Positions 1,369 to 36,212 of a stretch of DNA of 37,097 bases are shown here, one piece after another. The notes under the pieces are model-generated. The model did not search any database and was not told where the DNA came from. It worked only from the letters and a program-made list of their open reading frames with translations. A program made the translations under genes and the position numbers. The stretch is from a virus (taxonomy: Duplodnaviria > Heunggongvirae > Uroviricota > Caudoviricetes), in the IMG/VR virus record IMGVR_UViG_2563366877_000001, one strand, 5' to 3'. How positions within the stretch are numbered: position 1 is the first letter of the stretch; the number at the start of each line of letters is the position of its first letter.

Positions 1369-1444
1369 GCCGATATAGCTCAGTTGGTAGAGCAGCGCAT
1401 TCGTAATGCGAAGGTCGTAGGTTCGACTCCTATTATCGGCACCA
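1369..1444 (+). tRNA. thrW: tRNA-Thr (anticodon CGU)
   Basis: 76-nt sequence GCCGATATAGCTCAGTTGGTAGAGCAGCGCATTCGTAATGCGAAGGTCGTAGGTTCGACTCCTATTATCGGCACCA with cloverleaf, anticodon CGT and CCA end; known integration target of P22/SfV-type integrases. Confidence 0.93.
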
Positions 1445-3365: not shown

Positions 3366-3463
3366 CTTCCATTAATCCCTGAATTGTTGGTTAATACGCT
3401 TGAGGGTGAATGCGAATAATAAAAAAGGAGCCTGTAGCTCCCTGATGATTTTGCTTTTCATGT

Positions 3464-5932: not shown

Positions 5933-6229
5933 TTATACCTCTGAATCAATATCAACCTGGTGGTGAGCAATGGTTTCAACCATGTACCGGATGTGTTCTG
6001 CCATGCGCTCCTGAAACTCAACATCGTCATCAAACGCACGGGTAATGGCTTTTTTGCTGGCCCCGTGGCGTTGCAAATGATCGATGCATAGCGATTCAAA
6101 CAGGTGCTGGGGCAGGCCTTTTTCCATGTCGTCTGCCAGTTCTGCCTCTTTCTCTTCACGGGCGATCTGCTGGTAGTGACGCGCCCAGCTCTGAGCCTCA
6201 AGACGATCCTGAATGTAATAAGCGTTCAT
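5933..6229 (-). CDS. gam: host nuclease inhibitor Gam (short form)
   Basis: 98 aa, [21 protein letters not shown]...; AGGAG Shine-Dalgarno 7 nt upstream; in-frame stop 14 codons upstream excludes a long form. Confidence 0.95.
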
Positions 6230-6292
6230 GGCTGAACTCCTGAAAATATCGCCCGCGAAATGCCAGGCTGATTAGGAAAACAGGAAAGGGGA

Positions 6293-6670
6293 TTAGTGAT
6301 TGAGGCCGTTACCGCGTCCGTCGAGAAAAACTTCCACGAGCAAATCACGGGTATAAGTGCGCTCGATGCCGCGATGCAGATAAAGCCGTCCGCGTAAATT
6401 AGCTGATGCAGTCCAGGTACCATCTTTGTGTTTGACCAGCATTCCTGGCATGACCGCACCGCGATTAACGGTCTGCGTTCCGTAATGTTGATGAACCATA
6501 AAAACTCCTGCCCGTAAGCTGGGCTGCTGAACATATAGAGACTTCTGCGCGTATTCAGGCGGTGGATGGCCGCCGGTTGTCATAACTAAGCCGCCTCGTT
6601 GAAGCGACTGAGGTATAAAGTGTTGTGTTGATTTCAGCTGGTCACACCGACGTTCACGCGTCCGTTTCAC
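6293..6670 (-). CDS. hypothetical protein, first ORF after the putative pL; arginine-rich N-terminus (possible N-like antiterminator)
   Basis: ORF-track frame 6293..6703 begins at a TTG with no Shine-Dalgarno; start proposed at GTG 6670 (GGGGAG 8 nt upstream), giving N-terminal VKRTRERR... resembling the arginine-rich motif of N proteins. Start and function uncertain. Confidence 0.3.
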   Translation of the reverse strand: MKRTRERRCDQLKSTQHFIPQSLQRGGLVMTTGGHPPPEYAQKSLYVQQPSLRAGVFMVHQHYGTQTVNRGAVMPGMLVKHKDGTWTASANLRGRLYLHRGIERTYTRDLLVEVFLDGRGNGLNH

Positions 6671-6720
6671 CCCTCGCACTCCCCGAAGCCTGCTGAAATT
6701 CAAACTGCGGATCTAAGCGG

Positions 6721-6772
6721 TCATCGCAACGGTGAAACAGGTGGTTACCGTATCGTTGTGTCGTTGCGATGA
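6721..6772 (-). promoter_or_regulatory. long leader hairpin upstream of the first leftward ORF
   Basis: Perfect 11-bp inverted repeat TCATCGCAACG (6721-6731) and CGTTGCGATGA (6762-6772) with a 30-nt loop, about 50 nt upstream of the proposed GTG start. Confidence 0.4.
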
Positions 6773-6784
6773 ATTTATTTAAAA

Positions 6785-6850
6785 CTATAGTTGTTTTATC
6801 GTCAACAACAAAAGTTGTTTTGTCGGTTGTTTTAAATATAACTGGTTGTA
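6785..6850. promoter_or_regulatory. putative OL operator cluster / pL region
   Basis: Clustered GTTGTT/AACAAC inverted repeats (GTTGTT 6790-6795, AACAAC 6804-6809, GTTGTT 6814-6819, GGTTGTT 6825-6831) sharing the half-site seen in the cI-cro intergenic palindrome. Confidence 0.4.
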
Positions 6851-6979
6851 TTTAGGATGGATTTATTTTGTGACTTGCATCGCATAGCGATAACTGAAGT
6901 GAGGTGTGGTGGTTTTTTGGACGGTATGAGTTATGAGGGGGAGGAAAAGAAAACCCGGCGCGGTTGCCGGGTATGATTA

Positions 6980-7360
6980 TCAGTCAGCCCAACCTGATTT
7001 CGAGTTTATTTGGGTTTCTGACATTGTGTATTTCTTAATCGTGTCATCGTTAAAAAGAATAGTAAGTTCTTTTTTCGTACCGTTCGTTCCATTATGGAAT
7101 AATCCATAGAATGGAATAAAAGTGGTGCCATTAACTTTTACTTTTGCAAAGGCGTACTTCCAGATCTCGTTTCCACTGTCAGTATAGGAAACAGCATCAG
7201 GAGAACCAAAGTAAGATTTAACCTCATTCTTGGTTGTTTTACCTTCCTGAAGTTTAGACTGGACACTAATTTCAGTTTCATTTTTGAGTTGCTGGTTGCC
7301 TGAAGAAGCACACCCAGCCAATACAGATGCCATCATGGCAGCGATTAGGATTTTTCTCAT
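6980..7360 (-). CDS. lipoprotein (moron in immunity region)
   Basis: 126 aa with signal peptide and lipobox (MRKILIAAMMASVLAGC); TATAAT about 20 nt upstream of its ATG; lies between the putative OL/pL and cI. Confidence 0.7.
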   Translation of the reverse strand: MRKILIAAMMASVLAGCASSGNQQLKNETEISVQSKLQEGKTTKNEVKSYFGSPDAVSYTDSGNEIWKYAFAKVKVNGTTFIPFYGLFHNGTNGTKKELTILFNDDTIKKYTMSETQINSKSGWAD

Positions 7361-7589: not shown

Positions 7590-8279
7590 TTAACCATGCT
7601 TCCTGTACGTCTGCGGCATGCTTCCAATGACCTTACCGAATATGAACACCCGGTTCATCTCGTCTTTCTCGATCGGGTCCCACGGCGAGTAGCTCTTGTT
7701 ATCAGAGATAACCAGCAGCTTATCCTTCATCATTTGAAGACGTTTTACATGGGCAGTGTCGTCGTACAGAAACGCATAGATGCCATCACCGTCGAAAGAT
7801 TTAACAGTGATATCAACGAACAGCAGGTCACCTGGTTCGATCGTCCCTGACATGCTGTCACCTCGCACGTTAATGATGCGGATATTTTCCGCCTTCCTGC
7901 CATCGAACATGTGACGAGCATCGTCAAACGAGTACTCAACCGAGCGTAGAACTTCTACAAACTCACGGTTGATTACACCTGGCCCGGCACTGACTTCTAT
8001 ATCAAGAACGTCAATTTTGAAGTATTTGGAATGGCTGACAGTTGATTGTATTGGTTGCACTGTACTGTCTGACATATTTCCAACGCCAGAAGATAACCAT
8101 TCTGCGCGCACACCCAAAGCGTTCGCGATCTCCACGATTTTAGTTGTTTGGTTAGCTTTCCCTGTTTCGATTTTCTGAATAGCAGCCTGGCTAACCCCGA
8201 CCAAATCCCCAAGCGCCTTTTGTGTAAGGCCTCGCGCTAATCTGGCTTCTTTAAGTCTTTCTGAGAGTGTTGTTTTCAT
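7590..8279 (-). CDS. cI: CI-type repressor (HTH_XRE plus S24 LexA-like peptidase domain)
   Basis: 229 aa; N-terminal helix-turn-helix (LTQKALGDLVGVSQAAIQKIE) and C-terminal RGDSM...K autocleavage motifs; divergent from cro. Confidence 0.9.
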   Translation of the reverse strand: MKTTLSERLKEARLARGLTQKALGDLVGVSQAAIQKIETGKANQTTKIVEIANALGVRAEWLSSGVGNMSDSTVQPIQSTVSHSKYFKIDVLDIEVSAGPGVINREFVEVLRSVEYSFDDARHMFDGRKAENIRIINVRGDSMSGTIEPGDLLFVDITVKSFDGDGIYAFLYDDTAHVKRLQMMKDKLLVISDNKSYSPWDPIEKDEMNRVFIFGKVIGSMPQTYRKHG

Positions 8280-8614: not shown

Positions 8615-8683
8615 ATTTCCATTTCACGCTCTTTAACAATAAGCAATCAACTTAACAGTCAATTCAAACTAAAGGAGTCAATT

Positions 8684-9223
8684 ATGCAACCACTTACATA
8701 CCAACAGACTAGCGGATTTATTCCGACTGCGGTGATAAATCGTTCTCAAACAAAACAAGCTCCAGGCCACGAAAAAATCCGTGATGCCGTCCGCGCCTGG
8801 TCGGCTGTAGATAATCAGGATGTCGTTGCCGCACTCATTGTGAATGAGTATCGGGAGCAGGGCGACGGCACCATCGATTTCCCTGATGATGTCAGCCGTG
8901 CACGCCAGAAGCTGTTCCGCTTCCTCGATAACAAATTCGATTCTGAAAAATACCGAAATAACGTGCGTGAACTGACCCCGGCAATTCTGGCGGTACTACC
9001 GCTGGAATATCGCGGTTACCTGGTTGAGCAGGATAGCTTCATGACTCGGTTGGCTGAAATGGAAAAGGAACTCAGTGAGGCAAAACAGGCTGTCATTCTC
9101 AACGCACCACGCCACCAGAAACTGAAGGAGATGAGTGAAGGCATTGTGTCGATGTTTCGTGTGGACCCGGACCTGGCTGGTCCATTGATGGCGATGGTCA
9201 CCACCATGCTGGGGGCAATATGA
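8684..9223 (+). CDS. YdaT-family regulatory protein (in the cII position)
   Basis: 179 aa following cro; motif LTPAILAVLPLEYRGYL resembles Rac YdaT; stop overlaps next ATG (ATGA). Confidence 0.6.
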   Translation: MQPLTYQQTSGFIPTAVINRSQTKQAPGHEKIRDAVRAWSAVDNQDVVAALIVNEYREQGDGTIDFPDDVSRARQKLFRFLDNKFDSEKYRNNVRELTPAILAVLPLEYRGYLVEQDSFMTRLAEMEKELSEAKQAVILNAPRHQKLKEMSEGIVSMFRVDPDLAGPLMAMVTTMLGAI

Positions 9224-14059: not shown

Positions 14060-14196
14060 TGTTTGAGTTTAATATGGCAGAACTTCTTCGCCACCGCTGG
14101 GGGCGTCTGCGCTTATATCGTTTCCCCGGTTCTGTTTTGACCGATTACCGGATACTGAAGAATTACGCCAAAACACTGAAAGGAGCTGCCGCATGA
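14056..14196 (+). CDS. ylcG: small protein YlcG
   Basis: 46 aa, [27 protein letters not shown]..., matches DLP12 YlcG; not in ORF track. Confidence 0.7.
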
Positions 14197-14882
14197 ATAC
14201 CCAATATTTACAGTATGTCCGCGAGCAACTCATTGTGGCTACTGCTGATTTGAGCGGAGCAACGAAAGGCCAGCTTGAAGCCTGGCTGGAGCATGCACAA
14301 TTTGATACTGGTACATATAAACGAAAGAAGCCGCGCATTCTGGATGAGGTAACGGGCAGGATGATTACGCTGGATAATACGCCGATTTCTGGTAAGCAGT
14401 CGTACGCAAAAGGTTCATCCATTGCACTGGTCAGCCAGGTTGAGTTCTCAACCTCGTCATGGCGCCGCGCGGTTCTGTCTCTCGAAGAACATCAGAAAGC
14501 GTGGTTGCTGTGGAGTTACAGCGAAAGTGTTCGCTGGGAACATCAGGTCACCATAACGCAGTGGGCATGGAGCGAGTTTAAGACTCTGTTGGGTACCAGG
14601 AAAATTGCAGGTAAAACACTGGAACGTTTGAAGAAGTTGATCTGGCTGGCGGCACAGGATGTGAAGAACGAGCTGGCAGGGCGTAAGACCTATGAATACC
14701 AGGAGCTGGCATCACTGGTGGGAGTGACATCAAAAAACTGGTCTGAGACATTCACTGAACGCTGGGTTGCAATGAAGCACATTTTTCTACAGCTTGATAG
14801 CGAAGCTTTATTGCTTCTAACGAGAACACGTTCAAAACAAAAGGCGACATTTTTACAGCAAAATATTGCAAAGCTGGATTAA
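14193..14882 (+). CDS. putative late-gene antiterminator (Q-like), assigned mainly by position
   Basis: 229 aa directly after rusA/ylcG and before a promoter-like element and the lysis cassette; family not confirmed. Confidence 0.45.
   Translation: MNTQYLQYVREQLIVATADLSGATKGQLEAWLEHAQFDTGTYKRKKPRILDEVTGRMITLDNTPISGKQSYAKGSSIALVSQVEFSTSSWRRAVLSLEEHQKAWLLWSYSESVRWEHQVTITQWAWSEFKTLLGTRKIAGKTLERLKKLIWLAAQDVKNELAGRKTYEYQELASLVGVTSKNWSETFTERWVAMKHIFLQLDSEALLLLTRTRSKQKATFLQQNIAKLD

Positions 14883-33524: not shown

Positions 33525-36212
<2,688 letters not shown>

Follow-up and report, generated by a model that had tools for sequence, protein, structure and literature searches.

A modular untranslated pL leader ahead of kil in a lambda-like prophage, with a candidate antitermination RNA

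We analysed a 37,097-nt stretch of DNA from a tailed phage (Caudoviricetes; IMG/VR record IMGVR_UViG_2563366877_000001), hereafter the window, which by gene content and order is a lambda-like prophage. Its minus strand carries, in order, a cI-type repressor gene, a BamE-like lipoprotein gene, an operator/promoter block, a flagged 136-codon frame and gam-bet-exo, and its plus strand carries cro, a YdaT-like gene at the cII position, O, P and a Q-like antiterminator gene. A first-pass annotation had read the flagged frame as the single open reading frame (ORF) between the operators and gam, without a kil gene, and had suggested that it might encode a divergent N-like antiterminator. One long minus-strand frame (6293-6703) is indeed present, and kil lies inside it. 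Taken as a whole, we think it somewhat more probable than not that the region consists of kil and an untranslated leader of three RNA modules, A, B and C, of which module B is an antitermination RNA, comparable to the put elements of phages HK022 and HK639, that works without a phage N protein. The features of the locus are the following.

6293-6703, minus strand: the flagged 136-codon frame, followed by gam, bet and exo
6293-6499, minus strand: kil, 68 aa, of the KilR/phi80-Kil type (ATG 6499-6497, AGGAG Shine-Dalgarno sequence 6509-6505, stop 6295-6293)
6500-6670, minus strand: Arg-rich frame from GTG 6670 (VKRTRERR...), in frame into kil, judged non-coding
6538-6618, minus strand: module C, a two-hairpin element with a conserved tail GCGCAGAAGTCT (6550-6539), from a covariance model and covariation
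6636-6719, minus strand: module B, an 84-nt RNA of two directly adjacent stem-loops (stem I 6719-6675, stem II 6674-6636)
6721-6772, minus strand: module A, a 5' stem-loop with an 11-bp stem (6772-6762 with 6731-6721) and a 30-nt loop, from fold energy and variants
6777-6805, minus strand: putative pL promoter, read from the sequence (-35 TTGACG 6805-6800, 17-nt spacer, -10 TTAAAT 6782-6777)

Judged by homology, the gene within the 136-codon frame is its last 68 codons only (6499-6293): kil, of the cell-division (FtsZ) inhibitor type. Residues 1-68 of the product match PHROG 294 ("Kil protein for bacterial septation inhibition") with an E-value of 1e-37. Positions 1-70 of the 73-position NCBIfam model NF008465 (KilR, the Rac FtsZ inhibitor) align to residues 69-136 of the frame (E 2e-17; 63 bits, which does not reach the curated equivalog cut-off of 92 bits), and the alignment begins at the internal Met, that is, at ATG 6499, with AGGAG standing 5 nt upstream. 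BLASTP aligned the kil product to Rac KilR (36% identity, E 9e-13, Met1 on Met1) and to phi80 Kil (41% identity, E 5e-16), and a Pfam search with the 136-aa frame gave no match. Membership of the Kil/KilR family is of an ordinary, already known kind. We take the product to be unrelated in sequence to the 47-aa Kil of lambda.

Existing annotations divide over the start. RefSeq, for identical E. coli chromosomes, annotates the 207-nt kil coding sequence (CDS) and leaves the leader without any CDS, and the record of phage 4A7 has the same 207-nt CDS. PhiR26_1, a phage that plaques on MG1655, matches the window across the region at 99.9% identity and has Q and no annotated N; its record carries a 378-nt version with a 125-aa product. 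The 125-aa "Kil" annotations in some GenBank phage records thus appear over-extended. The order kil-gam-bet-exo is as in phi80, HK225 and KO-TP1, and HK225 has an in-frame stop 7 codons 5' of its equivalent of the kil ATG.

Our comparison loci bear L-numbers: L219 is phi80, L220 HK639, L003 HK225, L004 HK022, L098 the Rac prophage of E. coli K-12 and L305 phage Turner, and L205 and L312 are loci discussed below that carry module B in HK639 flanks. An alternative 102-codon frame (6226-6534, minus strand) overlaps kil. In Turner (L305 678-959), a 1-nt deletion fuses ATG 6583 to this alternative frame; the record lists the product as a hypothetical protein, probably an annotation artefact. At Rac kilR (L098 4406-4503, minus strand), the annotated small RNA (sRNA) KilS, with its terminator, ends about 175 nt upstream, and is a further case of a terminator-bearing RNA element ahead of a kil gene. 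A KilS-like identity of our leader was considered and rejected, since the window leader and KilS showed no similarity.

Comparison of related loci indicates that the 57-codon extension upstream of kil is non-coding. Among 93 kil loci, fetched and chosen by Kil identity, 30 have an interrupted extension frame, owing to a nonsense codon, an indel or a lost start: CAG has become TAG at 6610 in 26 loci, a 5-nt insertion follows 6632 in 4, and GTG 6670 is replaced by GGG in one locus and by ATG in another. In phage HK225 and in Citrobacter, Kluyvera, Enterobacter and Silvania loci, the frames upstream of kil are unrelated or a stop codon lies nearby. Plaque-forming phages are among the relatives with a broken extension: the isolated phage IdasGreatGrand has the TAG, and the isolated phage Turner has its 1-nt deletion between ATG 6583 and the kil ATG, so that even the shorter in-frame extension from ATG 6583 is not maintained. 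Copies of the leader in a second subfamily, B2, have the GTG followed directly by TAA. Across 63 distinct sequences, the extension has accumulated 8 synonymous and 15 non-synonymous substitutions, compared with 37 and 30 in Gam; kil itself has 19 and 0, a figure biased by the selection of loci on Kil identity.

These measurements bear directly on the proposal that GTG 6670 starts an N-like antiterminator with an N-terminal Arg-rich motif (ARM), either fused to Kil or forming a short peptide. The start is as the first-pass annotation had described it, with GGGGAG (6684-6679) placed 8 nt 5' of the GTG and a product beginning VKRTRERR; the spacing is acceptable, KRTRERR resembles the TRRRERR of lambda N, and PhiR26_1 is annotated with the 125-aa product. 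We nevertheless regard the proposal as scarcely credible. The ORF belongs to the Kil family, an outcome that the annotation itself had named as speaking against an N-like protein, the frame of its extension is interrupted in the loci and phages listed above, and substitutions in that extension are mostly non-synonymous. The whole product matched no N family in Pfam or PHROGs, its PHROG 294 match falling in the Kil part, and the 57-aa extension alone had no PHROGs or Pfam match. A tblastn search with the Arg-rich peptide against 50,697 phage genomes returned only the same leaders and no N gene, the other early ORFs of the window show no N family, and neither arm has a boxA/boxB pair. As far as sequence can tell, each testable mark of a lambda-type N, whether a family match, a conserved ARM ORF or paired nut sites, is absent here.

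The similarity of the Arg-rich motif to N, on which the proposal had leaned, is not beyond chance. Windows with at least four Arg in seven residues arise in 42% of dinucleotide-preserving shuffles of the leader, which holds 24 CpG dinucleotides; over the 37-kb window, all six frames together contain 86 of them. The KRTRERR codons (6667-6647) coincide with the apical hairpin of module B stem II. The B2 subfamily retains this hairpin with a different stem and loop, yet reads GTG TAA. Consequently, the "ARM" is a translation artefact of a CG-rich stem.

The approximately 270 nt upstream of kil (about 6770-6500) are an untranslated pL leader composed of modules A, B and C. When the window is compared with heteroimmune relatives, similarity vanishes 5' of about 6770 and returns 3' of it, and this break places the immunity-specific operator/promoter block there. 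Two palindromic operators (AACAAC-TTTT-GTTGTT and TAAAAC-AACTATA-GTTTTA) overlap the putative pL, which a promoter consensus scan missed because its -10 hexamer has T at position 2; the transcript would start near A6770. Folded as one piece, the 286-nt leader has no significant minimum free energy (z = -0.76), and only the individual modules are informative.

Module A is the perfect hairpin with an 11-bp stem that had already been noticed at 6772-6721, and we confirmed it (dG -19.2 kcal/mol, z = -4.0, with 0 of 200 shuffles folding as well); its stem is 9 bp long if transcription begins at A6770. In each of the 18 variants of this leader family, 8-11 bp form between the arms, and one variant restores the inner pair as A-U; heteroimmune relatives have a weaker hairpin (z = -0.8 and 0.2). 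Over its first 23 nt, the module agrees with the pL leader starts of phi80, HK639, HK225 and KO-TP1 at about 19 positions. An RNase III site like the one in the lambda N leader needs a long double-stranded stem of about 20 bp; the 11-bp stem is too short for it, and the likeness previously drawn to that processed hairpin is lost. Module A presumably stabilises the 5' end. The same annotation had offered a cis-acting RNA element as its other possibility, and this is supported for the two-stem RNA lying under the ARM codons (6719-6636), not for hairpin 6772-6721.

Over roughly its first 55 nt (CATCGAAACGAAACATCGACAGCTGAGCGAAGTTAGCCAGCGGCG...), the pL transcript is near-identical across phages with differing immunity regions and with nut, put or B cassettes (L219 1768-1825, L220 1775-1830, L003 1745-1800, and B2 loci, e.g. 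L312 3497-3555). A junction, AAAGCATTTCTCCCGCATCAGCGGGTAAC...GAGGG with a CCCGC-AUCA-GCGGG hairpin, precedes unrelated pL gene cassettes in several phages (L219 2135-2185, in phi80 upstream of N; L095 1265-1318; L003 2265-2300).

Module B begins about 50 nt after the putative transcription start. The window carries the B1 type; the B2 subfamily is about 82% identical to it, of the same length and aligned without gaps, and comes from 15 IMG/VR contigs whose immunity regions are of many kinds, with module B just 3' of pL in every case. We applied RNAalifold to 22 B1 and B2 variants and obtained stem I in alignment columns 7-51 and stem II in columns 52-90, with no spacer between them. In this model, pairing is kept in 99.4% of cells, and compensatory changes affect three pairs (A-U to C-G, G-C to A-U and A-U to G-C). 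Of the 17 fixed differences between B1 and B2, 11 fall at unpaired positions and the other 6 make up the three compensatory pairs. The covariation score is 0.145, compared with 0.078 in shuffles (0 of 500 reach the observed value) and at most 0.042 in slid controls. The same two-stem architecture emerges when the window and L205 are each folded singly.

Our first closing stem for module B, AUUUCAGC with GCUGAAAU from a single-sequence fold, was replaced by the RNAalifold model, whose two stems fit all the B1/B2 differences. Each phage has one copy of module B, always in the pL leader; a search of the B2 phages for a second copy, or for a boxA near pR, found none. An Rfam scan of the region including module B, at gathering and at E-value thresholds, gave no match, a negative of little weight as Rfam is without the put family.

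Module C stands between module B and kil. It is composed of hairpin 1 (6618-6580), a UUAUGACAACC linker, hairpin 2 (6574-6558, GGCGG-CCAUCCA-CCGCC) and a GCGCAGAAGUCU tail, and at the base of hairpin 1 a CAUA-type sequence pairs with the UAUG of ATG 6583. Segments of 62-80 nt of this module recur in HK225, in Enterobacter and Klebsiella phages, in phi80 and HK639, and in more than 120 IMG/VR contigs. All six upper pairs of hairpin 1 show compensatory changes, and its stem exists in six or more different sequences. Pairing holds in 97.5% of cells, compared with 84.4% in shuffles. The covariation score of 0.370 exceeds those of shuffles (0.118; none of 500 equals it) and of slid controls (at most 0.078). 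Hairpin 2, in copies anchored on hairpin 1, has one compensatory variant (GGCGC/GCGCC) and several G-U variants, and in some copies a T-run follows it. A covariance model (R1) scored the window at 88 bits, phi80 at 75.6 bits and HK639 at 76 bits, and no Rfam family matched. The TAG mutation at 6610 hits an unpaired position of hairpin 1.

An intrinsic terminator lies directly 5' of module C in 100 of 135 distinct copies. In relatives with N or put, phi80 and HK639 among them, the module follows the first terminator of the pL operon and precedes kil-type genes; in phi80 it stands downstream of N, between tL1A and the annotated Rho-dependent terminator tL1B. The gene 3' of the module starts 50-76 nt later; of 112 loci, 50 have a Kil homologue there and the rest some other gene. 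The module is also the most C-rich, G-poor stretch of the leader (C/G = 1.86). Our best guess is that module C is a Rho-entry site or a translation gate ahead of toxic genes.

Individual copies lie at L219 2497-2609 in phi80, L220 2974-3060 in HK639 and L003 3001-3062 in HK225. Hairpin 2 is followed by a T-run in the IMG/VR loci L134, L273 and L296 and there resembles a true intrinsic terminator; in other copies, it may be a terminator-like pause hairpin without a U-tract. In L223, L227, L245, L247 and L250, also from IMG/VR, hairpin 1 is followed directly by a CA-rich stretch and the next gene. HK022 has a module C of hairpin 1 only, by IS903 (L004 5441-5497, minus strand; covariance-model E 0.0012). 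A promoter inside module C was rejected, as the would-be -35 lies in a covarying stem and the spacing is wrong, and an alternative pairing of the hairpin 1 3' arm with hairpin 2 is not conserved across hairpin-1 types.

The pairing of ATG 6583 within module C also bears on a different account of the leader, in which this ATG would start a longer Kil isoform (96 aa, MTTGGHPPP...) or a polyproline leader peptide that gates kil translation. The ATG is invariant, GAG(G) lies 10 nt upstream, IdasGreatGrand is annotated from it and the frame is open to kil in E. coli-type loci. The account is very improbable all the same. Turner's 1-nt deletion splits the two frames, the frames of HK225, KO-TP1 and ENT1 end variously or overlap other genes, and the spacing to the conserved tail varies by 4, 5, 7, 9 or 18 nt. 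Moreover, the compensatory variant of hairpin 2 turns GGHPPP into GAHPAP, the AUG is paired at the base of hairpin 1, and the KilR homology begins at ATG 6499. The peptide MTTGGHPPP was accordingly rejected as the main constraint on module C, since the tail spacing is not a multiple of three, the ends of the frame are not conserved and the hairpin 2 variant alters the peptide.

We found that module B occupies a position where related phages carry known antitermination signals. A near-identical first stretch of about 55 nt is common to the pL leaders of phi80, HK225, KO-TP1, HK639 (which has a putL-like RNA) and the B2 phages. What follows differs: phi80, HK225 and KO-TP1 have a nutL with boxA TGCTTTTTAACAA, and phi80 also has N. 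When we collected 131 distinct pL leaders beginning with a common 27-mer, 57 carried boxA, 38 put, 10 module B and 26 a variant boxA, and none carried two of these; the loci were partly gathered with element-specific patterns, which biases the proportions and leaves the exclusivity unaffected. In L205 and in L312, a B2 locus, the left and right flanks are identical to those of HK639 and module B sits as a cassette in place of putL. In six contigs, the gene order is pL-putL-C-kil-type gene, parallel to the window's pL-B-C-kil. The leader with modules B and C is present in 2,214 of 5,426 complete E. coli genomes (41%).

The B2 phages show what such an element could face. They have strong intrinsic terminators 650-1900 nt 3' of module B, including some of the CCCGCTCCGGCGGGTTTTTT type, each then followed by module C. 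The ORFs between B2 and the terminator are mutually unrelated and not N-like; among their products are an HNH endonuclease, a tellurite-resistance-like protein and others without a known function.

We also searched the window for the known signals themselves. A put covariance model was built from 13 put variants; for HK639, the GenBank annotation was used. The model scored HK639 putL at 102 bits, HK022 putL at 90 bits and, as a control, HK022 putR, on which it was not trained, at 32 bits. With filters off, this model found no match in the window, and put pattern searches were also negative. In HK639, the RNA antiterminator is annotated on the left arm only, and module B is likewise on the left arm only. 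The pL leader has no boxA at up to 2 mismatches. The first-pass annotation had found no canonical boxA/boxB site, and had missed a perfect boxA on the other arm.

8627-8639, plus strand: perfect boxA CGCTCTTTAACAA, rrn/nut-type, 13/13 consensus match, 13 nt after the cro stop

This CGCTCTTTAACAA boxA is the window's only zero-mismatch site. It is kept in relatives with the same cro module and absent from the B2 phages. A search of the leader and of the region downstream of cro, as had been suggested for boxA/boxB-like elements, thus yields boxA after cro only, with no boxB-like hairpin behind it. Compared with the rest of the window, the leader shows no similarity, and no hairpin is common to the pL leader and the cro-downstream region. 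The boxA suggests a Nus-factor-dependent, rrn-like protection of the pR operon.

Module B stands in the slot of nut and put, the B2 phages have terminators without N-like ORFs, the window has neither N nor put, and the single copy lies on the left arm; for these reasons, we propose module B as an antitermination RNA. The put RNAs of HK022 and HK639 are cis-acting, protein-independent antiterminators (PMC9378689). By analogy with them and outside their family, module B would be a cis-acting antitermination or anti-pausing RNA, a tentative assignment that we hold with a little less than even confidence. Once transcribed, it would act in cis on the RNA polymerase that made it, producing a put-like processive antitermination or anti-pausing in which a phage N protein would take no part. 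Transcription from pL could then pass downstream terminators, which would be tL1A-type ones in the B2 relatives and the following site in the window. The pR operon carries the consensus boxA instead.

3425-3443, minus strand: first strong intrinsic-terminator-like site within the pL operon, an 8-bp stem then TTTTTATTATT, from a terminator scan; upstream of a DksA-like gene and the int region

Several facts weigh against this proposal. The window has no terminator between module B and kil-gam-bet-exo, the first strong intrinsic one being 3.2 kb downstream (3443-3425), so that module B is not needed to reach those genes unless Rho-dependent sites exist. Module B has no detectable sequence or structure similarity to put. 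Its covariation rests on one split, B1 against B2, in the very alignment that also yielded the structure. The start of pL transcription is itself a reading of the sequence, and the loci that define the slot carry the bias of proportions described above. Finally, an unrecognised protein partner, or a pure role in RNA stability, Rho-shielding or translation, is possible.

The most substantial of these alternatives is that module B is a non-processive, structured element of the 5' untranslated region (UTR), which shields the leader from RNase E or from Rho loading, or tunes the toxic kil; its nutL/putL-like position would then reflect a modular leader architecture and not a common function. The absence of a terminator between module B and the recombination genes in the window agrees with such a role. 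Module B is also G-rich (C/G about 0.53), a composition that disfavours Rho binding, and the adjoining module C is C-rich. Kil-type genes are toxic, and Rac kilR is known to be kept silent by Rho/NusG (PMC5793797). A 5' UTR role leaves unexplained, however, why module B, boxA and put exclude each other in 131 leaders, why putL and module B are exactly swapped between identical flanks, and how the B2 phages pass strong intrinsic terminators without N or put. We consider it unlikely, both as a function for module B and as an explanation of its position.

A second alternative keeps antitermination and adds a protein, with module B acting as a nut-like site that recruits an unrecognised phage antiterminator or a host factor. 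Nut sites hold the same slot, and the terminal hairpin of stem II is similar in size to the annotated phi80 nutL core, CACG-UAAA-CGUG. Against this, no conserved ORF travels with module B: the first pL genes of the B2 phages are wholly different and belong to unrelated PHROG families, and in B1 the first gene is kil. There is also no boxA beside module B and no second copy in the pR operon. We find this alternative improbable.

If the proposal of an RNA-only signal is right, module B would be a third class of lambdoid early antitermination signal, a self-sufficient, cis-acting RNA, unrelated to put in sequence, that makes E. coli RNA polymerase resistant to termination in the pL operon of N-less phages. 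We put this broader claim forward with slightly more reserve than the antitermination role itself.

The remaining features of the window lie outside the leader.

6953-6972, minus strand: intrinsic terminator closing the cI-lipoprotein transcription unit, just 5' of pL, from sequence and a terminator scan
6980-7360, minus strand: BamE-like lipoprotein gene, between cI and pL
7590-8279, minus strand: cI-type repressor gene with HTH and S24 peptidase domains, from domain matches
14193-14882, plus strand: Q-like antiterminator gene

The BamE-like gene (6980-7360) holds the slot of lambda rexAB, has its own terminator (6972-6953) and probably serves lysogenic conversion, as a moron gene. At the cII position (8684-9223, plus strand) lies a YdaT-like gene (Pfam PF06254, E 4e-30), as in Rac, in place of a lambda-type CII gene. 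Close to its ends, the window has the Hfq-binding sRNA isrC (34584-34706, minus strand, 150 bits) and a tRNA gene (1369-1441, plus strand), which adjoins the int end and is probably the integration site.

The modules and the gene can each be set beside a known system. The kil gene shares with Rac KilR and phi80 Kil 36-41% identity, equal length and start, and the pL-operon slot 5' of gam and the recombination genes; it scores below the NF008465 cut-off (63 versus 92 bits), which makes it a distinct subfamily. The phi80 homologue of module C is the stretch from tL1A to tL1B in the tL1 region, where GenBank records give the conserved hairpins no functional annotation. Unlike phi80, the window has no upstream intrinsic terminator, and its module C comes directly after module B. 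Module C is thus an unannotated, widespread structured element ahead of toxic kil-type genes.

With the N/nut systems of lambda, phi80 and their relatives, the window shares the location of nutL in the same slot of the pL leader and has a consensus boxA at the nutR position after cro. It differs from them in lacking a recognisable N gene, a boxA in the pL leader, a boxB hairpin common to both arms and a conserved Arg-rich frame. The 13/13 consensus at 8627-8639, in the pR transcript, is likewise shared with rrn-type boxA and Nus-factor antitermination; it differs in that the site is on the other arm, outside the flagged region, with no boxB or boxC identified.

The closest comparison is with put. 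The known cases of processive antitermination by RNA alone form a very small family, that of the put RNAs from HK022 and HK639, which is valuable for understanding how a nascent RNA reprograms RNA polymerase; the HK639 element was reportedly studied by King in 2011 (cited in PMC9378689). Module B shares with these RNAs its position just 3' of pL, a length of about 70-85 nt and two adjacent predicted stem-loops with bulges. With HK639 put, it further shares an N-less phage, a left-arm-only copy and the same slot in otherwise near-identical leaders. No sequence or covariance-model similarity was detected in either direction, and as the put model does not recognise module B, the predicted resemblance is one of architecture, position and size only.

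We conclude that the leader under the over-extended kil frame holds two covariation-supported RNA elements, modules B and C, and that one of them is a credible candidate for an N-independent early antitermination signal. If true, module B would account for early-left expression in very common N-less lambda-like prophages, those of the 2,214 E. coli genomes included. A second, sequence-unrelated RNA in the same slot as put would also be an independent solution, open to structural comparison with the first at the beta-prime zinc-binding domain and the RNA exit channel.

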